From NCBI GenBank assembly GCA_000165425.1, contig CT868072.1, positions 114,563 to 134,562 on the forward strand: DNA of 20,000 nt, read 5' to 3'. The stretch comes from Paramecium tetraurelia. Lineage: Eukaryota. The position numbers and the translations under genes were made by a program. Positions within the stretch are counted from its first letter, which is position 1; each line of letters begins with the position of its first letter. A model generated the notes under the pieces. That model saw nothing but the letters and a program-made list of their open reading frames with translations, did not search any database and was not told the origin of the DNA. Of this stretch, positions 1 to 20,000 are shown in pieces.

Positions 1-854
1 TAATCAAATCCAATGCTTGAGGAGTGGCTTTTGGAAAATAGTTTGTAAATCCAATTCTCTAGCCTTTAGGAATATTGTTGACGATTTGAGAGGCCAAGGG
101 TGCTTAGACACTTTCCAATTCAGAGGTGGTTGGTCTGCCTATGACTTCAAGAACCCTTTCGATTTGATTGAGTGTGGAACTACCAGGGAAGATAGGTTTG
201 CCATTAATCATTTCTCCCAGGATGCAACCAACTGACCACATGTCTACAGCTTTGGTATATTGGGTGGATCCAAGGAGAATTTCAGGAGCTCGATACCAGC
301 GAGTTGCTACATACTCAGTCAGAATGGAAGTTTCATCGATTTGATTTAGTAGACTTCTAGCTAGGCCGAAGTCTGCAACTTTGACATTACATTCTGCATC
401 GAGTAACACGTTTGATGGTTTAAGATCTCTATGTATGATTTCAGCAGAGTGAATGTATTTTAATGCTTTGAGTATTTAATAGATAATATATCTGAAATTA
501 AAGTTTAAGATTATACCTCTAGTGTATTTCTTCGAGGATTCCTCCTCTAATTACAGCATGGAGGTCTGTTTCCATGAAATCGAAAACAATATACAGATCT
601 TTGTTATTATCTGCTCGATGAATATTGGTCATTCGAATAACATTGTCGTGGAGCATCTCCTGTAAAAACATGACTTCTCGAAATGTGCGTTGTGCATCAG
701 TGGCATTATGAAATGCATCAAATACTTTTTTGAGTGCTACAGTTTATTTTGTTTTTCGATCTATGGCTTTCCAGACTACTCCATATGCTCCTTTCCCCAT
801 TTTCTGTAATACTTCATACTTCTGCATTATGTGGGACTCGATTTCTTCGGTCAT
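1..854 (-). CDS. MAPK15: MAP kinase, ERK7/ERK8 (MAPK15) family. The 3' end runs off the window. Exons are 854-517 and 491-<1.
   Basis: Code-6 translation from the ATG at 854: [67 protein letters not shown]...[11 protein letters not shown]...DFGLARS...[18 protein letters not shown]...[12 protein letters not shown]. It has the TEY activation loop, and the '[14 protein letters not shown]' segment is characteristic of ERK7/MAPK15. In-frame TAA/TAG fall at Gln positions. Confidence 0.93.
492..516 (-). other. 25-nt spliceosomal intron in the MAPK gene
   Basis: Minus strand reads gtataatcttaaactttaatttcag. Removing it restores the kinase frame ([22 protein letters not shown]). Confidence 0.93.
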
Positions 855-883
855 TTTAAAAAAATTAACTGTTAAAAATAATT
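855..883. promoter_or_regulatory. 29-bp AT-rich divergent intergenic spacer (putative bidirectional promoter / 5' UTRs)
   Basis: The sequence tttaaaaaaattaactgttaaaaataatt lies between the MAPK ATG (-, 854) and the first in-frame ATG of the RING gene (+, 884). The promoter function is inferred. Confidence 0.45.
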
Positions 884-1720
884 ATGAAGAAACATAAATC
901 CTACATCAATTACGAAGACATTATTGATAAACCTACTCCATTGATCAATATGTAATAATCATTTAATCTTAACGTGAATGTCAAATAACTCAAATAATAA
1001 TAATCATCTCCACATATCCCTCTCATTAATCCTAAGAAACCTTATCTTCAATCCAGAACCAATAATCGAAATAGTCTCCCAGTCATACGCTCTGCTATGC
1101 AATCACAAATTATGGACAGAGATACCCAATTTAATCAAAAGGAGCATGAAAAATTAAAAACTGATTATGAAAACCTTAAAATTGAGTATTCTAAGTAAGA
1201 ATCGCTTGTCTAGCAATTGATGAATGAGAATGGCCTATTGAAGAGTCTCAATGCTGACCTTAAAAATTAGGTTGATGATCTTAAAATCAATATCAAAAGG
1301 TATCAATAGAATGATGAAGCTGCTTACTAATAATATCTCTCAAATTAATAAGAGTTAATTATAAAAGAATTAAAATCGAAGATTAATTAATTGTCTGAGA
1401 AATTGATTCTTAAAGAAAAACAAGAGAGCCAACCAGCCAATTATCTTCTTTACGTGAATGAGATTCAAAGTTTGTGTCTGGATCTAAAGAGGCACTTGGA
1501 ATGCAAGTACTGCGGAAAGGAATTGAAAGATCCAGTAACACTAATTCCATGTGCTCATTCGTATTGCAAAGGATGTAGAAAGGGTTATTCCAATGATTGT
1601 TTTTTGTGTGGTAAAGAACTAAAATTAGAGGCGGTGTATCTAAATTAATTTATGATTGACATGATGGCATTATATAAACGAAATATTGGACTCATTGAAT
1701 AGTTGAAAAATAATTTATGA
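884..1720 (+). CDS. 278-aa coiled-coil protein with a C-terminal C3HC4 RING finger (putative E3 ubiquitin ligase)
   Basis: Uninterrupted code-6 ORF from ATG 884 to TGA 1718-1720. It has a low-complexity N-terminus, a heptad-rich middle (HEKLKTDYENLKIEYSKQESLVQQLMNENGLLKSLNADLKNQVDDLK) and the RING motif CKYC..LKDPVTLIPCAHSYCKGC.......CFLC. The true start could be a downstream ATG. Confidence 0.85.
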
Positions 1721-2019: not shown

Positions 2020-2635
2020 TATATTTGATCCACATTATAACTTTTCTGTTATTACCAACAATTATCTCACTCTCCTTTTTTGGAAGATTACCTTTAAATT
2101 TTTCCAGAATGATTTGGTATCAATTTAAATTTTGATACATATTTAAAGTCGATCATTAATAATACAATTAAGTATTCATCATTTATTCTTAATTTTATTT
2201 ATTCCCCCATCGATAAATTTAATTAAAAAGTATTAAAGAATGTTACAAATCCTTTTTGAAGAAAATTGATAGTATAAATATACGCTGTAAAGATATTTAA
2301 ATATGTCAAACAATCGATTACCAATGTTATTTTATTGTTGTCATCCATTTCAAACTATTTATGTTATTTCTTATATATATAAAAATCTTTTTTATTATAA
2401 TAATATTGATATATAGAAATAACATAAATAAGCATAAATTTTAGATTCCCTCATTTTTCTATCCAAATACCACTATGTGATATTTAATAATAATAAATTT
2501 CTAAAATATATTTAGAAATACTTTTTTAATACATAATAGTAAATATGAATCTAATTATATAAAGTTAATTAGATATATTAATATATATAATGTTATAATA
2601 ATAAATTTTATATTATGTTGAATATGTTATAATTT
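2020..2635. other. AT-rich intergenic region between convergent genes (3' UTRs)
   Basis: GC is very low, especially at 2380-2630. There is no convincing long code-6 ORF. Confidence 0.6.
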
Positions 2636-5600
2636 TCACACTTCAATCATCTCAAAGAAAATATTCGTTGCTGGATTAACAAATATTTTCACTAAAATTG
2701 TTTACAAAAGTCCAGTTGCACCTGATAAACTCAATTGCACTGCCTTGAAAACAATTAATAATTTAATTGGGTCTGATACACAATGAGTGTTTAGGAATCC
2801 CATAATGAAGTTAAGACCCCACATATTTGATCTACTAATATCACCACCAGAATCGCTTGCTTCTAAGGCCATGGCTATTAGGATGAAGTAAATTAACAAT
2901 GTAGTTAAGCCTATGAATATTCCCCATCCTATTTGTCTAACCACAAACACTTTGTGTGGCATCAAGAACAGTATTACAAACATTTCAAAGTTAGACAATA
3001 TAGCCGAGAAAATACTGAATATAACTGATTGTAAAGGTTCCAAGGGCACTTAGAAGAAGATGTTTATGTAGCAAGTGTTAAGTATGGTCATGTATAACAC
3101 ACAGAATCTGATGGGACGAGGCAATCTTCTTTCAAAAATTAAAAAGATGCATAACAATTTATGGAATAGAGCCATAAACAATAGTACATTGGCAAGGGTG
3201 AACTTAAGTTGACATCCACTTTCTAAGAACTTCTTTCGTTTGTAATCTCTATGCCATTATTGAACTATTTGTTCTTTGATTTCATAAGTTGGTTCTGGCT
3301 CTTCTTAGAGATTTTCCTCTTCATTTGAAACATCTAAAAGATCTTTATCCTTCTCTTTTTCTTTTTCTTTCGCTTTATCAGTATGTTTACTCTTATTTCT
3401 CTTTCTCCTTCTCATTGTTGATTTTTTCTTTTGTTTAGGTTCAATGATTTCAGATTAACCAGCTTCTTTGACATCCTTTTCAAATGAGTCCTCTTAATTA
3501 TTTTGAGCAGGTTGATTGACATCAGTGACTTTGATGGCACTAAGTGCACATCCATCATCATCTTAAAGTTGAGGTAAATCATTTGATTGTAATTCCTGAC
3601 AGAAGGGTGGTGTCATATTATCTCTTCTATTGAGGATAGGTGACTCTTTCAATTCTGGATGAAGTTCATACTATTAGCTATCACCCATATCATATTGAAG
3701 TGGTTAATCAGCATAGAGTTATTGCTGTTGTTTTTGTTCTTATTATTGGAATTGCTTTTCTAATTCTAGATTGAATTATTCTAGATCAGCAATACTCTCT
3801 GATTTGAATTATTATTATTATTAATCTTATAAGATTTAAGATTATTATTGTGACTATGATTTCTATTGCTATGATTATGATTTCTATTGTTATGATTATT
3901 ATTATTGTTATTATTGATTTGAAACATTCTTAGATTTAATGGTTGCAATAGACACAGAAGATTTGGAAAATTCAGGTTCCAATTATTTGAAGTATTTAGC
4001 TATTTCAGGTTCCTTTTGCTTTTCTCCTGGTTTCACATCCAAAATGTTTTCAGGAACTTCATAGATACTTTCCATGTTGTCACTATTTTCACTATCTTCT
4101 TCATCATAGACTACTTAATTAGGTGGTTTATCAGAATCATCAGAATCAGATCTATAAGTAGGCTCACTTTAAAGTGGAGGATTGGCATTTTATTCACCTT
4201 TGATTTCATCCATCTATCTAATCTTCATCAATTCTTCTGGTTCGATATCAGGTTGAACCATCTTAATATCCACTGGAGCTTCCTCTTATAATGGGAACTA
4301 GACACTGGTGTTGATTTGTCTCTCAGGATTATCTTGTTATTCCTCAAGTTGCTTTTATTACTCCTATTCTAATCTTAGTTATTCTTCATATTCTTATTAC
4401 AGTTTCTACTCTATTTCCTTTTGCTTTTCCATTTTCAATTTTTGTTATTCTGATCTCTTGGATTGGTTTTCTTCAGCCTTGATTCTAATATATTCTGATT
4501 CAACAAAATGAGGAGCCAATAATTTCTTCTCATAATCTTCCCTATCCTTTTTGAATCCATATCTGACTGAAAACACTAAAGCAATAGTCATAATGGCTAA
4601 AGCATAAACAATGACTGATTTGTAGAAAGGGAAGTTGAGTAAGGCTAATAAAGCTTCCATGGAGAATGCCTTAGCGAATTTATCAAATGCTAGAGCATCT
4701 GCAATAGCATCACCAACTGAAGTAGGAGATAGTTCTTCGCATTAGCAAGTGACAGTAACAGCTCCAGTTGCATCAACCAGTGTAACAGATTTACAGTTTC
4801 CTCCTCCTGCACTCCAACTTCCATCAGCACCTTTTCCAATACAAAATATGGCTTAAGATTCTGGTTCTTCATCTAACTCATATAAATCCTAATAATATTG
4901 CATGTTTCTTCTGCCATACAGTCTTCTGAGTCTTCTTAATCTTGCTGCTTTTTTGGCTGCGGTGACTCCAAAGGACATAGGTATTGGTTATTTGGGAACA
5001 ATGACTGATCCATTGGCTAATTTTGGTTCAATGTTTTAGACAGATGCTGGTACAGATCTACTTGGGAAGGAATCGTCAGTTGCATAAGGATTGTTATTGA
5101 ATTCAGCTTAATTGTAAGTAACAGTTGAGATAGAAGTGTCATCAGATGCTGAGGATTCATCATCATCGCTGATTTTGATATCCTTCTTTACTTTAGTGGG
5201 ATCTGCTCCTGCCAAATATTCAGCCATCTTAGAAGGAGTAGCAATAGATGATTTCATAGAGAATGATCCACCTGAGAATACTTTAGGAGGTGCATTGGGA
5301 TCAGCAGTCTATGTTAAACCAAATTTAACAGATTCTTGGACTTTAAACATTTTTGCATTATTCTCCTTCATTTTTTACCAAGCTTCATCAGCATCACTTG
5401 TTGAATTACTGTCAGTTGAATTAGTTGAATTGGTTGATGCAGTTGTACTGGTTGAATCTATAGAATCCATTTAATTCTATCCAGCTGCCAATAGTCCATT
5501 TAATAACCCAGCAGTTCTCATGATGTCATTTTGGAGATTCTCTTTTATTCTAAACGATTTGAAGTCGACATTGCCATTCTCAATATCTCCTTGAAGATCA

Positions 5601-8600
5601 CTGACTCCATTGGTACTGGCTGAAACAATACTATCTGCTTTATCTAATTCAGCATCCATATTTGCAGAACTCATACTCAATTAGATATCTTCATCATTCA
5701 TTAGTTCTTCAATGGATTTGGTCAGAGCACTCTTAGTAGCAACACTGACATCTTGGGATTGCAATTCTTTGAGTGATGCCAAAATATTTTGTTTGAGTGT
5801 GACTAATTTAGACTACTCTGCGTTGACAATAGCTGTTTCATTAGTATCTTGATCAGAAGTTGGGTTATCGATAGTGATATCCTTGACACCAACAGCAAGA
5901 AGGTTAAGTAAATTAATTTACTCTGGGATTGTCAAAGTTGTTCTGTTCTAATAAAGCAAGATAAATCTATCTGTTGCAGCCACAATTTCTGCTAATTATC
6001 TTGATCTGAAGAAATAGGGTAATGGGGAGTACTTATCCTCTTATGATTCTCTCTTTTTCAAAAACTCAGCAACCTAAAGTTTATGTCTAAGATCTGCTTT
6101 ATTCAATCCGACTACAACTGATGATGTAAGGTTTGTTAAGGCTCCCAAAGAATCTGATACTGATGCCATCAGAACTATGAATGGTTGAGTTACAGCTGAA
6201 TCACTCAAAGGATTTGGTAGAATAGTATTCAATTCATCGTCTATTGAGTAATCAAGTAATAGAATCTGATTTAGTGAAGCAGCCTTCAAAATGTCATTGT
6301 CGTATTGAGTGGGAGAGTAGTAGAGTGTAAACTTATAAGTGAATGGTGAATCGCTATCTTCACAATCAACCACTTTTATAGTGAATTAGGTATCAAAGGA
6401 AAGCCCACTAGTAGGAGATACCTTTATTTTACAGTTACGAGGTGGCAAATTGATATTAATAAGTAATGTAGTTGTGGAAGGCATGAAGAATTGAGGATTG
6501 TAAACAGATGCCCTGAATCCTAATTAAGCAAGATCAGTTAAATCATAGAAACTATCCCAGAACTTTATAGTTATTGAGGTGAAGTAGAATCTTAATGTTG
6601 CCACTACATTGAAATCATATACTATTGCACCACCATAGTACAGACTATCTGGATTCTTCGTGGGATATAAGAATTTAATGCTGATTTCTTAATTCATGTT
6701 AACTCTCTTTGAAGTCAAATATTCAGGTCTCTTGAGTTCTAAAACTGGGATGTCTAATTCCACAATTACAATAACTGCCTAAGCAACCTCAAACAATTCA
6801 CCTTTGGTACCATTCAAGTAGAAATTATAGGCATTATAAGGCACTAATCTTTTTGCTGGAACAAATTGAGAGGTGGTTCTATTAAGTGGAATTTCTTCAT
6901 CGTACACATCTGAACATGGTAGATTAGTATTTAGATTCACACATTTCCATACCAACTCAATTCCTACACTCTAATCTGTTTTAATATTGGGATCCTTTGC
7001 CCATCCATTCACTCTCAAAGGTACAGCATATCCATTCATTCTATTTCCTCCTTCAATTTCAACTTATAATCCTTAATTCAATAGTGTAATATCAACTGTG
7101 TAATTTGCTGAAATTGGTTTGGTTGTTAGAGTAGCTACCAAAGTTACTTGATATTAGAAACCACCTTTTCCTGAATAAGGAGGGATGTCTAGTTGAACAA
7201 ATTGAACATCTGGAGCTTTTACACCTGTAAGAGCAGTGGTATCCTATAGAAGATATGATTCAACAGTTCCCTTCTTAGCTTTATTTGACATCCACTCATA
7301 ACTGATTGTTGATGCTATAATTTCTGTAGTTCCAGATAGACAACTTTAATGAATGATTGTACCCACTAATTTGATTCTTGCATTTGTGTAATACACATGT
7401 GGGGCTAGTTCTTCAATTGATACAAATGGTGATTCATAAGTAGTAGTTGAAACCTAGTAATCTGAACTGAACTCTGTATTCAAGAAATTGGTGAATGTGT
7501 ATTTAAATACATACTTTGAGTATTCAGATAATAACAAAGGTGGAATTTCAATTTTACTACTCTTGGCGGCATTTGCAGTGTCAAATAAACCTTAGATTCT
7601 TCCTCTGACACTAGAGTTTTCTGGTTCAATTGAGACTATTGACCATGATTTCATATTCAACCCTCTACCACCATCATTGAATATTTAACTTGGGAAGAAT
7701 ATGATCTTGCTGCATAAATTGCTATATTATGGGCCTGTAAATTTAACATAGGCAGCAGCAGGAGCATCTGGACCATTAATTTTGGCTGCCAAGAAGTTTG
7801 TGTAAAATATTCCTTAACAATCCTTCCTACCTATTACTGATTTCAGATTTAATGTGAGTAAGCCACCTATTAAAAATTAAGCATTATTTCCAAAGACTAT
7901 TAATGCCTACTTCTAATTATTAGGATCCACATTACATAAAGGTTTTCCACTTCCTAACTTAGCAAAGTCATCATCGTTGAATAATTTCTGACATACATCT
8001 CTGCTAGGTATAGTTGGGTCATTGATTCCTTTTATTGAGATTATTCCACCCAGATTTATTGTCATGGAATCTAAACTATCCTTCATCTTAATATAAGGCA
8101 CTCCATACTCGCAGGTTCCACATTCAGAGTATCCATGTTATCTTCTATCAATACCTGTAGTTGGACAATTACAAATCTTTACAATATCTGGGCCTTCTCT
8201 ATTACCAGCACAGGTTAAACAACCATTTTTATCACAAGTAACACATTACAGATCACATTTTTAACACTTATCATTGACATCATCATCGAAGTAACCTGAG
8301 TCACATGTGCATTGTTCAGTAAGTATCCTATCACCTCTACAAGTTAAACAATTGGAACTTGAACTAGTACAGCTTGTGCATTTAAAGTCACATTGAGGAC
8401 AGTTTGTAGATTTGCCATCCTCAAAAAGTCCATTTGAGCATAAACATAATTTATAAATTGGATTATCTGGTAATATTGTTGAATATCTATTTCCTTTACA
8501 AGTAATGCAGTAATTGGCTTTGACTGCACAAGTTGAGCAAGTAGGATCACATATTGAACACATTTCCTTTTGAGCAGATGAGTCTTCGTACTTTCCAGCT

Positions 8601-11600
8601 GGGCAAACACAACTTTAACCAACTCTGTCTCCTTTGCAGGTTATACAAACATCACTTTTTCTTTGACAAGTTGCACATTGCCAAGCACATGGTTAACAAA
8701 CAGCATTCTTATTGTCTTCATCATCAAAGTAACCAGGAGGACATGAACAAAATGGTGCATCTTGATTCCTATTAGCCGCACATTTCAAACAATTTATGAA
8801 AGCTTCTTTGCATGTAGAACATTTATAATAGCATTATTCGCAATCAGCAGTATGCGAATCTATCAAATATCCATTTGGACAATCACATTATGGTACTGTA
8901 AGTCTATTTGATGGGCAGCCTCCAGTACAATTATTACTTTTTGTTTAACAACTGTTGCATTGAATTGAACATTCTTGGCATATCAATGAATCGGGATCTC
9001 CATATTTATGATTTCCACAATCTTAAATACATTTTCCATTTAGTAAATATGTCTATATATCAGTATTAGTTTGTTTCTGTGGACATGATAAACAACTAGT
9101 CTCTTTATCATCTGTACATGTTAGACATGATGTGTGACAATCTTGACATTAGAATGTGGAAGGATTAAGGAATGATCTAACAGGACATTCAATATAACAA
9201 GTATTTTTATTTGGATAGAAATAGAGATCAGTAGGACAAGAAGTACATTGATTTGATTCCTTTCCAGTACAATTAAAGCAGAATTTATCACAATTTGTAC
9301 AAACATTACCATTTTTAAAGTATTCATCTGGACAACCAGTTTAACAAGTGTCTTTATATAAATAGTATCCATCCGCACATGCAATACATTAAGTGGATTT
9401 AACACCATCACATTTAGAACATCCTTAATAACACTTTTCACATTTTTGATTGGAATCATTTGAGAAATACCCAGTAGAACACTCCTTAACACATTAACCA
9501 GTAGCAGAAAGATAAGTTGTTGAATAGCAACTGCTACAGTTAGTATCCAAAACTCCAAAGCAAGTCTTACAAGTTGCATTGCAAATCAAACAAATATTAC
9601 CATTAATGCTATCTGCATATGCGTAAGAACCAGCTTAGCATGTGATTCTACAAACATCATTTTCCATATATCTAATTTATGTAGCACCTGTTTTTGGATG
9701 AGTAACTGTTCCACATTTGGTACAATCCAAACTTGTAGAATCTAAGCAAGTCTTACAGGTCCAATCGCAATTTGAGCATTAATATGAATCTAAGTTATTA
9801 TATTTTCCATCGGGACATATCTTGTAACATTGTACATTTTTCAAGACCTTATTAGTATCATAAGTCTAGTCAATAAAGTAATCAGTATCGCATTTAAGGC
9901 ATTTTGTAGATCCTAATAATTTTTCATCATACACACAATTTTAACAATTAGGTACACATCCAACACAAATAGGTTGAGTAGCATGCTTAATATATTTCTC
10001 TGGACATGTACTAACACAATAAGAATCATCAACTCTCAAAGCAATATCTGAACAGGATGGACAAATTGTTGAATTATCATTACAAGTTTTGCATAATCTA
10101 TTACAAAGAACACACGAGTTATTTTCTACAAAATATCCATCTTAACAATTATTTAAGCATCTTGAATTGGACAAAATTAAATGATTACAAGATCTACAAG
10201 CGGTAGGTTAATCATTCAAACAAGTAGAGCAAGAACTATCACAAGTATCAAACAAGCAAACAGAACTTTAAATATCAGGTGAATAGAATTCTCCACATTG
10301 TTATTCACATGTCCAATCATATACTCCGGTATCTGCATTTAATGAAACCTTCAAGAAATAATCAGTTTCACAACTCAAGCATTGATTGTTATCTGGACCA
10401 GTGCATGTAATACATGAAGAATTACAGCTTTAACAATTTTTCTGAGTTGAATCAAAGTAATATCCAGAGGCACAATAATTATAGCAATTGTCTTCGAACA
10501 AGAAGAATTTAGAAGTATCACAAGCATTGCAAGTTGTACCATCAATACATGTCAAACAATTTTCCATACACTTATCACAAGAGTGTGTAGTTTCATTCTA
10601 GAAGTACCCTTCAATACAAGAGATCAAACATTAAGAGTTAAATAGGAAAAGCTTATCGCTGCAACTTAAACATTAATTTGTGGAAGGACCACTGCATGTA
10701 TTGCATGACAAATTACATTGGTTACATTGATCAACATTTAAATAATAACCATCTATACAGGTATCACTGCATATTCCCCCCATAAACATTAAAGTTCCAC
10801 TGCATGTCAAACAATCATTCTCTTCAGGGCCTTAACAAGTTAAACATGTAGTATGACAAAGCTTGCATTTGTTGTCCACAGTGTCAGGATAGTAAGATGT
10901 ATTACAATTTTGTAAGCATTTACCACTTGAATCACTCTCCTAAAGTTTTTGAAGATATAGTTCAAGGGAACAAGAAGTACATTCTTAAATATCATTTCCA
11001 ATGCATTATACACAAGTGTAATGGCAAGAAACGCAAACTTAATCAACGACCACATAACCGTCATTACAACTATCTAAACATTCCCTGTCTTATTTAACCA
11101 AAGGAGCTGAACACTCAGTACAATCTGTTGCATTTGGTCCATCACATTCTTTACATCTTGAATTACATTTGATACAAGATGAGGTGACAGAATATAAATA
11201 GGTACCTGAAGGACATCCAGATGAGCAAGTTCCTTCAAAGAGATAAAACCCTGTAAAGCAGGCTAAACATTAATTGCTTAAGTTTCCTTCACAACTTCTG
11301 CATGATACATGGCATTTATCACAAACCATAATTGAATTATTTCTGTAAGTTAACGGTGGACATTTAGACACACAATTATAAGAAAGTAGATCTGATACAA
11401 TATCACCATATAATTGTTAATCTGTTGAAGTTCCATCTTAATTAGGCACTGATTAAGTTGGGCATTAAGTTACACAACTGTTCAAAGACAAATAGTAATT
11501 CACTTGATAATTATTGATGTTTTTATTCATGCATGCTGTGCAACTATTAGCCGAAGAACTTGTGCAACTTCTGCAATTTGTTGCGCATAATTAGCATGTT

Positions 11601-14600
11601 CTAGTGATTTGATCTCCATAATATTAATAAGGGCAAACTGTAATACATGGTGAATTGATATCAGCACTCAAAGGACTCATGAATCTGTTGGTTGTGCATA
11701 AGGTACATTTAGCTGAAGCATCTATGCATTTACCACAAAATTGATGACAACTATCACAATTACTATTTGAAGTATTAGCATATGTTCCATCTGGACAAGT
11801 TTAATTACAAGAATAATTAAAGTAGAACAACCTTGGACTGGCACTCGCTAAACATGATTAGCATTTATCTGCTGTTGTACCAAAGCATGTCTTACAACCA
11901 GCAAAGCAACCTCTGCAAGTTCTAGTTCCTGCATCCCCATAAAATCCTGCAGGGCATGCGGTTTAGCATAAAAGTGGAGTTCCAGTTAAAAATGAGCCTT
12001 GAGTACATGATGCACAAGATGTAGAATTTATGCAAGTGGCACAAGTGGAAATACATGTTTTACAAGTCTTAGTTGTTGTATCAGGATAATAACCATCAGG
12101 ACAATATTGATTGCAGGAATTTGAATATAGGAAAGTAGTATTGCAACTTTGGCAGTTATCTATCTTAGCCCCAAAACAAGTTAAACAACTAGGATCGCAT
12201 TATTTACAAGTTCTTGTTAGAGTATCTCCATATTAATTGCTTAAGCAACTTGTAGTACACAATATTCCAGTGTAGAAAGTTGAATCATTACATCTTTAAC
12301 AAGAAATACTATCATTGCAAACAGAACAATTTGAAATACAAGATGTACATGTTGTACCTGTCTTATAGGATCCAGTTGGGCAACTGATGTAGCATCCTTT
12401 ATTATAGAACAAGTATCCAAAATCACAAGTAGTGCAATTGCCCATTCCTATAGATGTACAAGTAGAGCATCCTTAAGAACAAGTATCACATCTCATATTA
12501 ACTGTATCTAAAAATGTACCTGCTGGACATGTTGCAATACAATCTCCCAAATAATTAAATCTACCAGCTGAACATATGATACAATCAGATTATGTTGAAC
12601 CCTTACAAGTCTTACATCCAGGATCACATTATCTGCAGGATCTGGCAGATACTTATCCGAAATATCCATCAGGACATACTGCTAGACAATTATTAATAGA
12701 ATTTATTGAATTAAAGAAGAAGCCATCATCGCAGTATTAACAATCTAATGGATTTATGCATTTCAGACAACCATTAATACAACTATCGCCAATCTAAAAG
12801 TATCTGTTTTTCCATAAAATCTATCAGGGCACAATGTTGTACATCTTTTTTCTTAAACCAAATAGAAAATAGATGCTCCACATGATAAACAATTATTTTC
12901 TAAAGGACCATCACATGTTAAACAAGATGAATTGCATGCCTAACATACCTTGTTGGCATCTCCATAATAACCAGTTGAACATTGAGTAAGACATTAGTTT
13001 TAGAAGAAGAAGTAATTAGGAGAACATTTTGTGCATCTCTATGCTGAAATTGATGTACATGAAGTACAATTTTATGCACATTGATCACATTTATTTGTAT
13101 CTGAATTAGCTACATAGCCTACATTTTCCCCACAACTTGTTAAGCATTTTTTGTTAAGTAAATATCTTCCAGCTTAACAGGAAATGCAAGAAGTTTCTTA
13201 GTCATCTAGTGCAATCCATTACATAGTTGAGTGACAACTATTACAAATACCACCTGAAACAGTAGGGGTTTATGAAGCCTTTTAGTAAAATGTAGTCTGA
13301 CATTCAGGTATGCATTATCCTTTCACTTATTAACCAGCTGTATATTACAAATACATATTTGGGTAACATTCTGTACATGCTGTTGCAGTATCCAAACATT
13401 GTTTGCATGCGTTATCGCAAATAGTACATGTGAAATCTAAATTCTTATAATAACCAGGCAAACATTGAATCAAACACTATCTCTGTTACTACAAATACAA
13501 ACTGCAAGTAGTTGATGTACATACATTATTCATAGAATCGCTAACAGTTTATGCTATTGAAGGGAGACAAGATATGCATCCAGTATCAGTAGTTGAAGTA
13601 CAAACTTTACAATTTGAAATTGGACACTTGATACATTATTAATTATTGACATCCTAGAAAAAGGAATCCCCACAAGTATTTGTACATATATTATTTCCTA
13701 ATCCATCCCAATTCTATTTGTAGTAGTATCCAGTATTACATAAGGTACATTGGTTTGAGGTTGTACAAGAAGAACAATTTGCCATACATGAGATACAATC
13801 ATCTCCAGAAGTATAAGTACCAGGTCGACAATAGCAAGTTGGAGGTTGGATTCTTTAATTTGCACAAACAGAACAATTTTTAGCTGATTAAGTACAAGTT
13901 ATGCAATATTTAGTATTGCACTATTCACAATTCAATAAGCCACTATCAAAATATCCATATGGGCAAGTTGTACATTGTGGAGTTCCTTATCTATTACCAG
14001 CACATTTTGAACATTATGATAAGGACTAAGAACAACTTGCACATTTTACTGAACAAGGTTAACAAGTACTAGTAGTAACACCATTTTAGGTTAAATTATA
14101 AATAAAGAATCCATCTTTGCAAGTTAAGCATTTGTTCAAATTGCTGCAAGTCATACATGCTGCATCCATATTACTACATGATAAGCAAGTATTTGAAGTG
14201 GTTAAATAATAAGAATTACTAACACAGGTAAAGCATTTTGTTGCAGTCTCGCAAGTATTGCAATTATTAGTACATTTGATGCAAGACGTTCCATCTAAGT
14301 AATAACCAGAAACACAAGTTGTACAACTAGCCATATCTGTGCATTAATCACAAGGACTAACACATAATTTACATTTCTTAGTGGTATCAACTTCAGCTGA
14401 ATCAAAATAGTATTTATTAACACAAGATTTGCAAACATCTTAATCACAAGTTTTACAAGGTAATGAGCAACTAATACATTGGCTTAGACTTAGTTTGTAA
14501 AGATCATTTTAACATTTTGTACATATCGATCCTGAGTTACATTCAATACAAGGAAGTGTGCATGCTAGACATTCTGACCCATTATAATAGTAACCTACTG

Positions 14601-17600
14601 AGCATGATTAACAAGTTGTCAAACTTGTACAAGTGACACATTTTGGATCGCATGTCTTACAAGTATTATTTTCCAAATATCTACCAGAAGCACAACTCAA
14701 ACATGTTGTTGCTGTTCCTGTACAAGTGATACATGAAGTTTTATCACAATCCAGACAATTTTTTTGAGTTTGGTCATAATATTTACCAGACAAACATAAT
14801 TTACACACAGTTGCAGAATCACAAGTCCAGCAAGGTGAAATACACCTCTTGCAACTATTGGCTTCATAATAGTATAAATCTAAACAAGAAGTGCAAGAAG
14901 TTGCTGAATTAACACAAGATGAGCAAGGTGATGTACAAGCAGCACATTTATTATCAGCTGTTAAATATTACCTTGAAGTGCAAGTCATACAATAATCTGC
15001 TCTATTCCAACAAGTTTTACAATTGCTGTCGCAAATTAAGCATTAAGTGCCTGATAAGTAATAACCATCTAAACAAGATAAACATGATGTTTAAGTTGAA
15101 CAAGTAACACAAGGTGACACACATTAAGTACAAGTGTTTTAAGCAGTCAGATAATAGGTGGAAATACAAGTTAAACAATAAGATGCACTTGAACATGTTT
15201 AACATGGGGAAACACAGTTTTAACAAAGATTGTTGTCCAAGTATTTTGTTAACGTATTACAACTTAAACATTTAGTTGAAGTATCAACACAAGATCCACA
15301 TGGAGATGTACAACCTAAGCACGATGTTCCATTTAAATAATATCCAGAAGCACATGAAGAGCATGTGGAAGCAAATCCTGAGCATTTTGTACAAGCAAAA
15401 TTACAACTTAGACATTCTTAACCATTTAGATATGTTCCATCAACACATGAACTACAACTAGCAGCAGCTGTGCATGTTAAACATGGAGAAACACATGATG
15501 TGCAAGATGATACATTAAGATAGTATTTGGTTTCACAAGAACTACATGTTAAACCATCCGTTCCAGAGCAAGTTAAGCAAGGAGATTAGCAAGTTGAACA
15601 AGTATTAGAGCTATTCAAATATTTACCACTTAAACAACTATTACAAGTGGTTGAATTATTACAAGTATTGCATCTGGGTTGACAAGTCAAACATTAACCA
15701 TTACTAATATAATGAGTACTATCACATTTTGTACAAATTGATGAGCTAGAACACTCCAAGCAATATGATACTTAAGTACAATCTTTACAGATTAATCCAT
15801 CTAAGTAAAATCCAGCCATACAGGATTAACAGTTTGTGTTTCCTGCAGTTAAACAAGTTAAGCAAGGAGACGAACATGTAGTACAAGAGTTATTTGAGCT
15901 TGTGTAATAATATCCATTCTAGCATGATAAACAAGCAACATCTGAACTACACAATTTACAAGGTGAAACACATTATTAACATGTATTCAAATTGGTCGGT
16001 TTATAGTAATAATCTATGCAACTCAAACAATTAGAAGCATTTGTCACACATGAAACACATGGTGATTAACATTGAGCGCAAGAATTATTAGAAATAAACT
16101 AACCAACACTACATTATTTGCATATTCCATCCAAATAATAGTTGGAACTGCAACTTGTACATGTAGAATCATTTGTACAAGAGGTACATCCAGTTGGACA
16201 TTAAACACATGTAGATCCACTTAGATAATATCCATCAGCGCAGGATTAACAAGTAGTTGATGTTGTACAAGTTTTACATTTTGCATCACATTAAGCACAC
16301 ACAGTTCCATTCAAATAATATCCAGTAATACATTCTTAGCAATTTGTATTGCCTGCATTTTAACATTTGACACAAGGGGATTAGCAAGTTAAACATGAAG
16401 TTCCACTCAAGTAAGTTGTACTAATACAAGATAAACAATTAATAGCAGAAGTACAATTTATGCATGGTGCCTAACATAATGTACAAGTACTATCTTGTAT
16501 ATAGTATCCATTTATGCATTTGGTACATTAAGAAATCAATCCTCCAAAACATGATCCACATTTAGCATCGCAAGCAAAGCATTTATTTTAACCTTAATCA
16601 TAGTATTATCCATCTGGACAGTTACAAGTTGTACATTAAGCACATTGATAAAATGCATTAATAGAGTAGCCATTTGAACATAATGTACAGTTTCCAGTAT
16701 TTGCTTCACATTCCATGCAGTTTGTCGAACATGTTAGACATTATGAGTTGGATAGATATTTACCTTTTAAGCAGGTAGTACACTAAGTATCTGCATTTTA
16801 GCAAGTTTTGCAACTACTTGAACATTAAACACAATCTGAATTGCTGATGTAAAATCCATCTGCGCAGCTTCCACATTAAACCTAGCTATTTGCAAAATTG
16901 CATGTATCCTTGCATTTTATTGGACATTTTGTGCAAACTGTACCATTAAGATAGTATGTATCAATGCAAGTACTACAGACCTATGCTGATGAGCAATTTT
17001 AACATGGACTAACACATTACAAGCAACTAGTTTAATCTTAGTAGTATCCATTTGTGCAGCTCAAGCAAGAGGTTTGCCCACTGCATGTTAAACATGGTGC
17101 TATGCAAGCGATACAAGAATTATTAGCATAGTAATACGATGTGTTCACACAGCTATTGCAAGATGATTAAGTTGAACAAGTTGAACAAGGAGATACGCAA
17201 CTAATGCAGCTTGTTCCAGATAGGTAATATCCACTTTAACATGAGGAACATGAAGTTGCTGAGCCAGAACATAATTGACATGCATTATCACATTTTGAAC
17301 ATAAGCCATTAGAGAAATAGTATCCTGGAACGCAACTAAGGCAAGTGGAATCATTTGAACAATTTTAGCATGGAGATGTACATTCTAATATAATATAGTA
17401 AATTACTTATGCAAGAATTTGAGTTAAGATAGTATGAATCTACACAGCTTAGGCAGTTAGTTGAACTTGTTATACAATTTAGACAAGGAGATTGACATGA
17501 TTTACAAGTATTAGATTCTAAATATTTAGTATCTATGCAACTAGTACAAGTAGATTAATCAGAACATGATTTACAACTAGTTGAACATTATAAGCACTAT

Positions 17601-20000
17601 CCATTATTCAAATAATGAGTAGAATCACAAGTGTTGCAAGCAATCTTACTACTACAAACCAAACAAGAATTTAATGTTGTACTGCATAAAATGCATAGAC
17701 TATTTTCTAAGTAATAGCCTGGTTAACATGATTAGCAACTAGTAGTGCCTGAAGAAGTACACGAAGTACAAGGTTATTCACAAGTTACACAAGTCTTATT
17801 ACTTAAATATTTTCCTGAGATGCAAGATGAGCAATCGGTTTATGAAATACAATTAATGCAAGGTTAAATACAAAGTAGGCATTATTATCCTGATAAATAA
17901 TAACCATCTATGCAACTAGTACATTGTGAAGATGTTTATTCACAAGAATAACAAGGACTTTAGCATGATTAACATTTGAGGTTCAAGTAGTATTGATTAT
18001 TTCCACATGCAACACATTAACCAGCGACTATTTCATATCCAGTGTCACATGAAGTACACTGAGTTCCTAAAGTGCAAGCATTACATCTATTCGAACATTA
18101 TGAACAATTTGATCCATTTAAATAATATCCGATTTAACATTCGGAACAGTTGTTAGAAGAATTTGAACACTTTTTGCAAGCAGAATCACATAATTTACAA
18201 ATTTATCCATCCAAATAATATCCTGTCTAACACAAGGAGCAATTTGTATTTCCAGCTATCAAACAATTGATACAAGGGGATTGACAAGGTTAACAAATAT
18301 AATTATTTAGATAGTATCCACTGTTGCAATTTGTACAAATATCACTAGCAGTACATAAGTTACACGGAGCAATGCAATTCTTACAAGTTGAGGAATCTAA
18401 ATAAAACCCAGCAGTGCAAGCCTAACAATTAGATTTAATTCCTGAACATTTGGTACATGTAGTATCACATGATTTACATTTTAATTCTGTACTATCATAA
18501 TATTAACCTGTTTCACAAGTACAATTTGAGCAAGCTAGTGTTTGATAGATATAATAAAATTACTTGCACATTTGTTGAATTCATTTACCACGTATTGACT
18601 ATCGCAGCTCAAACAGTATCCAGTTGTATCAGCACAAGTAACACAATGCAGGTCACATTGACTACAAGTTTAGCCATTTAAGTAATATCCGATAATGCAT
18701 GAAGTACATTTTGTAGAGGTATCAATGCCAAGTCTTACAGGTCGTAGAACATTAGTCACAAGCATCACCAAAGTAGCCAGAAGCACAAGCGTCACATTTT
18801 ACAGAGCCATTTAAGAATTAACAAGTGGACTGGCATTATGCAGGACAATCTAAGAAAATTAATTAGTAAATTTACGTTTGCAGGTTGTTCCGTCAAGATA
18901 ATTTGATTATTTGCAAGTTGAACGATTGAGAAGCTGCTGATCCAGAGCATGTAGCACATTCTTAAGCGCATAATTAGCATTGCGCTCCATCAAAGTAATG
19001 TCCATCGACACAAGTTTCGCATGTTGAAGCATTTAAACAGTTTAGGCACGGTGAGTTACAAGCATGACAACTGTTTGATTCCAAGTAGTAACCATTAACA
19101 CACTTTTAACAATTTGTATTTCCAGATACCGAGCATTTGTGTGCAGGGAGATTGACAAGCTTCACAAGTCTTACTTGAATCGATGTAATAATATCCAACA
19201 AGACAGGTTGAGCAAACATTTTCGGATTCGCAAGTGTCACAGTGGTTTATGCATTATGAGCAGGAATTATTATTCAAGAAGTATTTGGATAAGCAGGATA
19301 AACAATGGGTGGCTGAAGTTTCACAGGTGGCACAAAGGCTGTTGCAAGCAGAGCAACCATTTCCTGATATGAATGATCCAGGAGAACATTATTTACAAGT
19401 ACCATCCAAATAATAATTTGATTGGCAAGAAGTACATTCAGAAGCACTGTTGCACTTAGTACATCCAGTTGGACAAGTTTAGCATGAAGTTCCTTCAATG
19501 TAGTAGCCATCAGTGCAAGATGAGCATGTAGTTTCAGATGTGCAAGTGGTGCATTTATCATTGCATTTAGTACAAGTGGAATTATTAAGCCAATATCCAG
19601 GATTACATATAGTACATTAACTAGAGCTTTCACACTCCACACATTGACTTGCACAAGGTAAACATTGATTGCCTTCAAGGTATCTTCCTGAATTGCATGT
19701 TGTACAATTTGAATCACTGTTCAAACATGATTTACAAGTAGTAGAGCAATCATAACAATGGCCAGAAGAGTAGTATTAAGTACTTGTGCATGCTTCACAT
19801 TATCCATTGACTATCTGATAGCCAGAATCACATGAGTTACATTGAGTTCCTGATTCGCAATTATTACAATGAGGTGAACAGATAACGCAGGTAGTATTAT
19901 CCATAATAATAGCCTACTTTGCATATTGAACAATTGATTGAAGAGCCAGAACATTTTGTGCAAGAAGAATTGCATTGGGTGCAAGTAGAACCATCAAGAT
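2636..20000 (-). CDS. Giant polycystin-1-like membrane protein (Cys-rich furin-like repeats, REJ, GAIN/GPS, 5 TM). The 5' end is beyond the window. It has 3 tiny introns and several apparent insertion frameshifts.
   Basis: A single code-6 frame can be followed from the TGA at 2636-2638 (…NIFFEMIEV*) to 12787, and the provided ORFs at 2702, 4445, 5477, 6074, 7913 and 8261 are all in it. The Cys-repeat register continues to 20000 after allowing for introns at 17385-17406, 18535-18563 and 18850-18875 and for insertions near 12790, 13207-13224, 18728, 18924, 19137 and 19905. Confidence 0.88.
2740..3200 (-). other. Four-TM bundle resembling polycystin-1 TM2-TM5
   Basis: FHKLLCIFLIFERRLPRPIRFCVLYMTILNTCYINIFF / LQSVIFSIFSAILSNFEMFVILFLM / GWGIFIGLTTLLIYFILIAMAL / NMWGLNFIMGFLNTHCVSDPIKLLI. 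This resembles the PKD1 patterns H-x-W-x-S...R-x-Q-R before TM2 and W...F...EPLKVLL at TM5, as recalled rather than aligned. Confidence 0.6.
3809..3916 (-). repeat. Poly-Gln tract encoded largely by TAA/TAG, including a 21-bp tandem duplication at 3857-3898
   Basis: Translation is QQQQQQQSQQQKSQSQQQKSQSQQQSQILQDQQQQQ. The plus-strand units tgatttctattgctatgatta and tgatttctattgttatgatta differ by 1 base. Confidence 0.85.
4557..4630 (-). other. First transmembrane helix after the GPS
   Basis: FYKSVIVYALAIMTIALVFSVRYG followed by the charged KKDREDYEKK. This resembles the TM1...G...D pattern of GPS-TM proteins. Confidence 0.75.
4718..4843 (-). other. GPS (GPCR proteolysis site)-like motif
   Basis: CIGKGADGSWSAGGGNCKSVTLVDATGAVTVTCQCEELSPTS fits C...W...C...TCxC-x-x-L-S, about 30 aa before TM1. 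The canonical His of H-L|S/T is replaced by Glu. Confidence 0.7.
6100..7750 (-). other. REJ (receptor for egg jelly / PKD-REJ) module
   Basis: Beta-rich Cys-poor region with REJ-type motifs: LQVEIEGGNR...KDPN...ELVWKCVN, INLPPRNCKIKVSPTSGLSFDTQFTIKVVDCEDSDSPFTYKF and VSDSLGALTN. Confidence 0.75.
17385..17406 (-). other. 22-nt intron (phase 1)
   Basis: gtaatttactatattatattag. Splicing gives TGC ATA A|AA TGT ACA TCT CCA TGC (CIKCTSPC). Confidence 0.9.
18535..18563 (-). other. 29-nt intron (phase 1)
   Basis: gtaattttattatatctatcaaacactag. Splicing gives TGT GCA A|CT TGC TCA AAT TGT (CATCSNC). Confidence 0.88.
18850..18875 (-). other. 26-nt intron (phase 1)
   Basis: gtaaatttactaattaattttcttag. 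Splicing gives TGC AAA C|AT TGT CCT (CKHCP). Confidence 0.9.

Follow-up and report, generated by a model that had tools for sequence, protein, structure and literature searches.

Several lines of evidence suggest that the window, by which we mean the whole 20,000-nucleotide stretch of Paramecium tetraurelia DNA analysed here, encodes a protein in which a PKD1/REJ-type ectodomain is, as judged from sequence profiles, joined to a ciliate-specific membrane module. Our favored reading, which we consider probable, is that of a giant multi-pass surface glycoprotein, the product of one expressed gene, consisting of a furin/VSP stalk, a REJ domain, a GAIN-sized region with a GPS-type motif, TM1, a loop without PLAT and a module of five hydrophobic segments. 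Work on ciliary channels and ciliopathy genes uses Paramecium as a model, and Paramecium Pkd2 was investigated under the explicit premise that the cell lacks a Pkd1 homolog (PMC6627415). On the evidence of profile and motif matches, ciliates do appear to possess the polycystin-1/REJ ectodomain (REJ plus GPS-type motif), coupled with a membrane module that is different and specific to ciliates; at least one such gene is expressed. These genes are concrete candidates, testable by RNAi, for mechano- or chemoreception at the surface, for adhesion or for mating, in an organism whose behavior and electrophysiology are easy to read. They also widen the range of REJ-GAIN receptors by a PLAT-less form that is predicted not to cleave. 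Our claim is modest, given that the family is named in databases and that GAIN domains in Tetrahymena have already been published (PMC3321182).

A single expressed gene

The protein-coding gene lies on the minus strand (2636..20000), as do all features described below. It is read in genetic code 6 and ends at a TGA stop at 2636-2638; its 5' end lies outside the window and the N-terminus beyond base 20000. About 5,758 codons fall inside the window, in agreement with the single giant gene of more than 5,700 residues proposed in the preliminary description. From 12823 the frame stays open to its sole TGA, a run of 3,395 codons, and this one TGA between 12823 and 2636 compares with counts of 60 and 181 for the two alternative frames and of 67 expected from base composition. 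The upstream open reading frames (12763-17607, 17351-18580, 18259-19161 and 18990-20000) carry on the same cysteine-repeat protein. Three introns bounded by GTA..TAG are predicted, and all three are retained in DNA runs X1 and X3. The first (22 nt, 17385..17406) is absent from RNA runs X17 and X11, and the other two (29 nt, 18535..18563; 26 nt, 18850..18875) lie where X17 lacks coverage and are therefore seen spliced in X11 alone.

The frame of the window changes at about 12790, 18690-18730, 18924-18960 and 19136. Letters of the window at 12790 (2 nt) and at 13208, 13218, 13224, 18728, 18924, 19136 and 19904 (1 nt each) are missing from the contigs of all four runs, DNA and RNA; therefore the frame breaks stem from errors in the window sequence and do not mark a pseudogene. 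The Paramecium primaurelia ortholog has an uninterrupted frame across the 12790 site and the other sites of frame change. RNA contigs, which are no proof of a single transcript, tile 2596-6689 and 7031-20000. Where the preliminary description had considered that transcripts might divide the region into separate genes, these contigs instead form bridges across 7031-13713, 13684-18520 and 18491-20000. RNA depth is 130-290 across 2669-17342 versus 2-7 at 668-1334 and 2002-2668. This is one expressed gene. Scans of the window for Rfam families, tRNAs, and bacterial promoters and terminators returned nothing relevant.

The extracellular region

The extracellular cysteine-repeat stalk (8123..20000) comprises about 3,900 residues, is rich in CxxC and contains 15-19% cysteine. 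Repeat statistics give a period near 30 residues distally and near 50 residues proximally. Its matches to Pfam Furin-like_2 (E 1.2e-7) and VSP (E 2.1e-60) bear out the furin-type stalk of this length that had been described earlier, and a family profile matches the furin repeats of R-spondin, EGFR and ErbB3 at E 1.6e-6 to 6e-3. The cysteine repeats of the Paramecium protein itself gave no PDB match at E up to 1e-3. The stalk is followed by a pre-REJ module (7316..8122) that has no Pfam name, is conserved family-wide and is 90.7% identical to that of the ortholog.

The REJ domain (PF02010; 6086..7315) scores 82.5 bits against a cut-off of 25, with an E-value of 3.2e-23, and its match runs from profile position 11 to 420, that is, over 410 of 452 positions. 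It was detected in Pfam scans of sub-ranges of the protein, the whole-protein scan having passed over it, and it is present in eight of the 10 family members scanned. By these scores the REJ domain named in the preliminary description is genuine.

Between the REJ domain and TM1 lies a GAIN-like region (4709..6085) with a helix-rich first half, an S/T-rich insert (5396-5455) and a second half closing in a GPS-type motif (4715-4843) directly before TM1. The motif is made up of C2661, W2670, C2677, C2693 and C2695, followed by E-L-S; a basic stretch of the region lies at 4907-4942. Across 28 aligned rows the four motif cysteines are invariant and the tryptophan nearly so, and the motif matches column for column the canonical C-x-C-T-H-M-T-A-F of the non-ciliate protein P0071. 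A histidine at position -2 occurs in just one of the 28 rows, that of P0071; the Paramecium protein reads E-L-S and departs from the H-L-T/S triad. A GAIN/GPS unit had been placed before TM1 in the earlier account; its Cys/Trp motif stands, and the catalytic histidine is missing.

Profile searches point in the same direction as the motif. A family profile compared with the PDB at E up to 10 gave eight matches, six of them to adhesion-GPCR GAIN/GPS regions (E 0.004-0.4). These matches are weak and span only about 60-130 residues at the end of the domain; the best, both to ADGRG1 (E 0.0037 and 0.005), align on the GPS Cys/Trp pattern. Pfam GPS is found in 4 of 14 family members (best E 1e-4), and the Paramecium protein itself has no Pfam GPS or GAIN match and no PDB match when searched alone. 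A ciliate-only profile of 13 sequences scores 29.7 bits against the post-REJ tail of P0071 (profile positions 85-400, about 320 in all), compared with 9.0 bits for the best of 2,000 shuffles, and 44.7 bits against P0053. It gave nothing significant against P0163 and P0151, and its score against P0117, a second canonical REJ-GPS protein from outside the ciliates, was 4.2 bits, inside the shuffle range (hhalign probability 3%). One additional weak match came from a search started from P0071. GPS clusters account for 21 of 30 language-model neighbors of the GAIN-like part of a Tetrahymena member (top score 0.90), which we treat as a lead only, and UniProt names paralogs 'PKD/REJ-like', 'GPS domain-containing' and 'GAIN-B domain-containing'. 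Chou-Fasman prediction of secondary structure on the alignment gave uninformative output dominated by ciliate composition. We conclude that the GPS-type motif before TM1 is supported at the profile level only, and we infer a GAIN fold from the motif together with the weak profile matches. Replacement of the catalytic histidine (E-L-S) makes it doubtful that the protein cleaves itself as GAIN domains characteristically do.

The membrane module and its ciliate family

TM1 (4553..4615; hydropathy 2.13), with a conserved G..D just behind it, leads into a presumed cytosolic loop (3197..4552) of about 450 residues that is acidic, Q-rich and of low complexity, with an E/K/Q/L-rich stretch at 4334-4417. 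The PLAT domain that follows TM1 in the PKD1 architecture set out in the preliminary description was not found: the loop, scanned over 443 residues, holds no Pfam domain at E up to 0.01, and PLAT is likewise absent from the whole-protein Pfam scan. The C-terminal membrane module (2747..3196) contains five hydrophobic segments rather than the four TM segments counted previously, namely segments A (3134-3196), which carries an invariant histidine, B (3047-3103), C (2960-3034), D (2864-2932) and E (2747-2824), with an R-P-x-R motif (3104-3124) between A and B and a tail of 36 residues (2639..2746) at the C-terminus. Loop charges are compatible with a five-TM topology. By the positive-inside rule, segment A would be a cytosolic or interfacial helix and segments B-E would span the membrane, which would give five TM segments in total and a C-terminus inside; hydropathy and charge are the sole basis of the TM count (5 or 6). 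The module is the best-conserved part of the protein, with 95.5% identity to the ortholog, followed by the linker and TM1 at 94.5%; identity drops to its lowest values, 83% and 78%, in the loop and the S/T insert, respectively.

A 10-sequence alignment of the module gave no PDB match at E up to 10, and it showed no sequence likeness to solved chains including PKD1 and PKD1L3. Pfam yielded single weak matches only (E 0.016 or worse), a language-model search with the module of a Tetrahymena member returned unnamed neighbors only, at 0.89, and a word-indexed search of longer proteins found five Paramecium paralogs and nothing else. Against P0117 the module profile scored 5.9 bits, inside the shuffles (best 10.3), with an hhalign E of 0.23. 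Within the scope of these searches, the module has no detectable relative outside ciliates. The earlier statement that the protein lacks a channel domain holds: TM6-TM11 are absent, with no Pfam match to PKD_channel and only about 190 residues left after the loop. A secretin-type 7TM domain is likewise absent from the Pfam matches (no 7tm), and TM1 and the five hydrophobic segments are interrupted by the loop. There is no [RK]VxP motif downstream of TM1. As a separate observation, P0117 viewed by eye has a histidine and R-x-x-R ahead of its later helices, a likeness that the scores above do not raise to homology.

By its alignments, the protein is a member of the 'REJ domain protein' family of oligohymenophorean ciliates. 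Relatives are found in Paramecium, Tetrahymena ("REJ domain protein"), Pseudocohnilembus and Ichthyophthirius, with at least seven members in T. thermophila. The closest relative is P0006 (E 8.3e-112), which forms with the Paramecium protein a separate Paramecium branch (support 100/99), and the P. primaurelia ortholog is 87% identical. The alignments show all the family hallmarks in this protein, namely REJ, a GPS-type motif and then P-T-T/S, TM1 with G..D, a low-complexity loop, and a module with the invariant H and R-x-x-R. The N-terminal heads differ among members and include pentraxin/LamG, H-lectin and DUF4215, a variation that is typical of recognition receptors. In a literature search of the main texts of CC-licensed papers, we found no paper on the localization or function of any family member and none on a 'REJ domain protein' in Paramecium or other ciliates, consistent with the preliminary view that this architecture has no functional description. 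Among the Tetrahymena polycystin/PKD1 papers listed, judged by titles and the starts of abstracts, PMC3321182 alone bears on the family.

Possible functions and comparison with known systems

We propose that the ectodomain would serve as a head for adhesion or force sensing, of the PKD1/REJ type. With its histidine replaced, the GAIN-like domain probably does not cleave itself, and the stalk would thereby stay covalently coupled to TM1. A pull on the stalk or a ligand might then act through TM1 on the output side, which would be formed by the membrane module specific to ciliates together with the cytosolic loop.

An alternative is a split polycystin system, in which the protein would act as the receptor half of polycystin-1 and would gate or traffic a separate Paramecium Pkd2 channel in trans. 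We regard this as unlikely. The REJ domain and GPS-type motif of the ectodomain are in its favor, as is the report that Paramecium Pkd2 is both ciliary and at the surface, with a Pkd1 homolog absent according to its authors (PMC6627415). Furthermore, polycystin complexes are described as activated by the PC-1 N-terminus, even as a soluble fragment (PMC7728438), and Chlamydomonas PKD2 as linked to extracellular glycoprotein polymers (PMC7265326). However, PC-2 is described as assembling with TM6-TM11 of PC-1 (PMC7728438, PMC8357825); this part is missing here, and a split system with Pkd2 is therefore without evidence from the present analysis. PLAT is absent as well, the sequence of the membrane module is unlike that of the PKD1 or PKD1L3 chains, and the number of family members in T. 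thermophila alone is ill-suited to a single dedicated partner. One supplement of PMC6627415 contains none of the terms REJ, GPS, furin, EGF and polycystic and so offers no support from co-purification. Coupling to Pkd2 is speculation. It is also improbable, in our estimate, that ciliates have their 'missing' polycystin-1 counterpart in the REJ-GAIN family, with its ectodomain or membrane module controlling ciliary or surface Pkd2 from outside the pore, as an ancestral split receptor-channel pair.

We see an equally slim chance that the protein is a receptor for cell-cell or particle recognition, designed like the ciliate mating-type proteins and acting in pairing or in adhesion to prey or surfaces rather than in ion-channel control. 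MTA/MTB and mtA combine a domain of furin-like repeats with five TM helices and are said to come from an ancient 'furin-like repeat' family (PMC7786109, PMC3608545), which together with the variable heads of the ciliate family would suit such a role. Marks of that mating-type superfamily are 12-14 fixed Cys in the furin-like domain beside the helices and expression specific to mating; of these, the Paramecium protein shows furin-like repeats. REJ proteins are also reported in sea urchin gamete recognition (PMC1934368) and possibly in that of Ectocarpus (PMC4700764). Against this, REJ and GAIN are not reported for MTA/MTB/mtA in the portions of those papers considered, the family S-R-P motif occurs zero times in one MTA/MTB alignment supplement, and the conditions of the expressing RNA runs are unrecorded. 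Less probable still is a purely structural role at the surface, with the protein as a long, stiff rod that belongs to the glycocalyx or provides cortex anchoring, and in which REJ-GAIN would be the stalk base and the membrane module the anchor. The huge repetitive stalk with its VSP-like CxxC repeats, the lost cleavage triad and the low-complexity loop are compatible with a rod, yet one helix would be enough for an anchor, whereas the five-segment module with its invariant His and Arg is the most conserved part. Finally, the multiple frame changes within 12.7-20 kb might suggest several genes or a decaying pseudogene, a reading that we consider highly improbable given the absence of the frame-changing letters from the contigs of four runs, DNA as well as RNA, the bridging RNA contigs and the continuous frame of the ortholog.

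We continue to favor a protein that couples an ectodomain of PKD1/REJ type to a membrane module specific to ciliates. Members of the polycystin-1 family (PC-1, PKD1L1-3, PKDREJ and sea-urchin SpREJ1-10) likewise have an ectodomain that is large and modular, a REJ domain, which the sea-urchin authors take as the defining feature of the family (PMC1934368), and, immediately ahead of TM1, a GPS-type motif. The Paramecium protein differs from them in lacking PLAT, the TM6-11 channel-like domain and the C-terminal coiled coil, in the replaced GPS histidine, in a membrane module with no detectable sequence likeness to theirs, and in a stalk of furin/VSP repeats where they have PKD/Ig, lectin or LRR modules. 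Channel-less members are reported among the SpREJs too (SpREJ1, 8 and 9 with one TM, SpREJ2 with two and SpREJ7 with six), and some SpREJs also lack PLAT (PMC1934368). The GAIN domains of adhesion GPCRs (ADGRG1, ADGRG6, BAI3, ADGRE5 and ADGRB2) are the top PDB matches of the family profile, through the GPS Cys/Trp pattern; these matches are weak and confined to the domain end, and unlike those receptors the Paramecium protein has neither a secretin-type 7TM domain nor the H-L-T/S triad.

Beyond animals, Ectocarpus Esi0130_0068 from the male gamete is described as having REJ, GPS, six to seven TM segments and no full channel, a likeness by description; unlike the Paramecium protein, it is 1,427 residues long and has no cysteine-repeat stalk (PMC4700764). 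MTA/MTB of Tetrahymena and mtA of Paramecium, from the same ciliate class and again likened by description, share furin-like repeats, five TM segments and a large extracellular part with the Paramecium protein, unlike which they have no reported REJ or GAIN in the parts of PMC7786109 and PMC3608545 considered. Arac et al. 2012 described Tetrahymena GAIN domains, which are here set beside the family and not equated with a particular member. The Tetrahymena 'REJ domain proteins' belong to the same family and share REJ, the GAIN-like region, TM1, the low-complexity loop and the S-R-P-x-R-F module; the Paramecium protein, with its giant stalk, is two to three times longer.

Gene structure and expression of the putative giant receptor

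The minus-strand gene at 2636..20000 joins a polycystin-1/REJ-type ectodomain to a ciliate-specific membrane module and is expressed as one gene. Translated with the ciliate code, in which TAA and TAG specify Gln, the frame from 12823 to the TGA at 2636-2638 comprises 3,395 codons, including 139 TAA/TAG. This frame contains a single TGA, the stop itself, as against 60 and 181 in the other two minus-strand frames and 67 expected from base composition. Upstream, the cysteine-repeat protein runs on through minus-strand open reading frames at 12763-17607, 17351-18580, 18259-19161 and 18990-20000; about 5,758 codons lie inside the window, and the start lies beyond base 20000.

Splicing and frame were checked by aligning contigs of two public RNA-type runs (X11 and X17) and two public DNA runs (X1 and X3) to the window. 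A minus-strand GTA..TAG intron of 22 nt from 17385 is absent from the contigs of both RNA-type runs and retained in both DNA runs. Two more of the same form and strand, 29 nt from 18535 and 26 nt from 18850, are absent from X11 contigs and retained in the DNA runs; X17 does not cover these sites. All other frame changes are small insertion errors of the window sequence that break reading frames, not mutations, because the DNA runs also lack the letters concerned. Extra letters missing from all four runs comprise 2 nt at 12790 and 1 nt each at 13208, 13218, 13224, 18728, 18924, 19136 and 19904, an incomplete list to which two sites counted without positions are to be added; at 18556 the letter is extra in part in the same comparison. 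The Paramecium primaurelia orthologue reads uninterrupted across the 12790 site.

RNA contigs cover 2596-6689 and 7031-20000, single contigs span 7031-13713 and 13684-18520, and RNA depth is 130-290 across the gene versus 2-7 in two flanking bins. RNA contigs, intron removal and one open frame therefore agree with the single giant gene of the preliminary description; the data suggest nothing in favor of several genes, although contigs cannot prove a single transcript. At 18010-20000 the summed contig depth is about 10- to 100-fold higher than elsewhere in the gene, in both the DNA and the RNA runs, and thus the distal cysteine-repeat DNA is common to many other loci or transcripts and represents a large paralogous repeat family.

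By Pfam, the neighboring genes encode a RING-finger protein with a coiled, Q-rich N-terminal part (734-1720, plus strand; zf-C3HC4, E 6e-5 to 7e-6) and a protein kinase represented by its C-terminal half (2-628, minus strand; Pkinase, E 1.8e-41). Over 600-840, the DNA contigs reveal a second variant at roughly half depth.

The stalk, REJ domain and GAIN-like region

The stalk extends over roughly 3,900 residues, 15-19% of them Cys, with CxxC as the most frequent spacing. In Pfam its matches are Furin-like_2 (E 1.2e-7) and the VSP repeat of Giardia (E 2.1e-60), and in PDB its family profile recovers the furin-repeat regions of R-spondins, EGFR and ErbB3, which bears out the furin-repeat stalk proposed previously. 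The REJ domain, likewise proposed, was missed by the whole-protein Pfam scan and is a firm match at 82.5 bits (cut-off 25; profile positions 11-420 of 452); eight of ten other family members scanned also have it.

The claim of a GAIN domain with a GPS motif has partial support at profile level. In most members the region measures approximately 390-430 aa, a size that fits a GAIN domain, and it ends in C-x8-W-x6-C-x15-C-x-C, in which all 28 aligned rows keep the four Cys and nearly all keep the Trp. This pattern aligns with the canonical motif of P0071, a non-ciliate REJ protein. A ciliate-only profile matches the post-REJ tail of P0071 with 29.7 bits over about 320 positions (best of 2,000 shuffles, 9.0), and gives no significant match to the non-ciliate metagenome protein P0117. 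When a 14-sequence profile was compared with PDB, six of the eight matches were adhesion-GPCR GAIN domains, all weak (E 0.0037-0.38) and confined to the domain end. Pfam GPS was matched in 4 of 14 members, the studied protein not among them, and the cleavage triad is not retained: the studied protein has E-L-S, and P0071 is the only one of the 28 rows with a His at -2. Given these weak, partial matches and the lost triad, we regard the region as GAIN-like and as probably non-cleaving.

About 20 residues ahead of the first GPS cysteine lies a highly basic stretch, R-L-R-R-L-R-R-L-Y-G-R-R (4907-4942, minus strand). It is common to the studied protein and its orthologue, the Paramecium paralogue P0006 carries R-Q-K-R at the equivalent position, and other members are without the insert. 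This stretch may serve as a target for a dibasic-specific protease in place of the lost self-cleavage.

The membrane module and its possible partners

TM1 (4553-4615, minus strand) is followed by an acidic, Q-rich loop of about 450 residues. The loop is without PLAT, since a Pfam search of it returned no domain, PLAT included. Within its Q-rich part, which is presumably cytosolic, a 21-nt tandem repeat is present in 2.5 copies (3851-3903), and contigs of all four runs are interrupted or skip at 3857-3921.

The last 190 residues form the membrane module, the part best conserved with the orthologue (95.5% identity). It has five hydrophobic segments, three strongly and two moderately hydrophobic, with an invariant His in the first and an invariant R-x-x-R just behind it. 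Thus TM1, the long loop and a multi-helix C-terminus stand as first described, but five hydrophobic segments, not four TMs, follow the loop. The loop charges agree with a cytosolic or interfacial first segment and four membrane-spanning ones, which would fit five TM in total; six are also possible. The module had no PDB match, as a single sequence or a profile, no meaningful Pfam match, no significant match to P0117, and unnamed neighbors only in the protein Atlas.

The observation as first described is confirmed, and its polycystin-1-like reading is supported in part, for the REJ domain and a GAIN-like region; PLAT and the cleavage triad are absent. The protein is probably a receptor of REJ and GAIN-like design on a giant furin-repeat stalk; it has no PLAT or channel and is probably not self-cleaving. 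Surface recognition or force sensing would be a plausible role because of the long rigid stalk and because the N-terminal heads differ among family members (pentraxin/LamG, H-lectin, DUF4215). If the GAIN-like domain stays uncleaved, it would keep the stalk in covalent linkage with TM1, and the conserved module and loop could provide an inward signal route.

It is possible, though of low probability, that the protein serves Pkd2 in trans, as initially proposed. However, in the solved polycystin complexes, as covered in excerpts of two reports, it is TM6-TM11 of the PC-1 type, absent here, that assembles with PC-2-type subunits, TM1-TM5 being peripheral (PMC7728438, PMC8357825). In excerpts of their papers, Paramecium authors describe the cell as without a Pkd1 homologue (PMC6627415) and PKD1L1 and PKD2L1 as not found (PMC8535419). 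Kinship with ciliate mating-type proteins is a second lead: these combine furin-like repeats with five TM helices in the portions consulted (PMC7786109, PMC3608545), but the S-R-P motif of the present family does not occur in one MTA/MTB alignment supplement.

Relatives and known REJ proteins

The closest protein is an unnamed P. primaurelia product of 5,434 aa, whose N-terminus is an out-of-frame gene model; identity is 87% across the C-terminal 1,828 residues. The studied protein groups with P0006 (3,627 aa; support 100/99). Among 1.84 billion representatives, the REJ-to-TM1 region found 333 matches at E<=1e-3, 128 at 1e-10 and 27 at 1e-30. The 30 listed matches that were looked up by name include seven T. 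thermophila proteins called 'REJ domain protein' and one 'GAIN-B domain-containing protein', as well as proteins from Paramecium spp., other Tetrahymena spp., Pseudocohnilembus and Ichthyophthirius. The membrane-module alignment found 5 Paramecium proteins, two of which UniProt lists as 'PKD/REJ-like' and 'GPS domain-containing'. Different N-terminal heads sit on one REJ-to-membrane base: pentraxin plus laminin-G-like in P0051, H-type lectin in P0161 and DUF4215 repeats in P0071. Our literature search found no paper on the ciliate REJ domain family itself.

Sea-urchin REJ proteins are PKD1-family members with 0, 1, 2, 6 or 11 TM, and in the sections consulted their authors regard the REJ domain as the defining feature of that family (PMC1934368). 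Published work already includes a REJ-GPS protein from a brown alga, with 6-7 TM (PMC4700764). P0117 (1,856 aa) combines REJ (130.8 bits) with a canonical GPS bearing H-L-T (37.1 bits), followed by TM1 and more helices; Pfam detects neither PLAT nor a channel domain in it. Therefore, the PLAT-less REJ-GPS multi-pass design also occurs outside ciliates.
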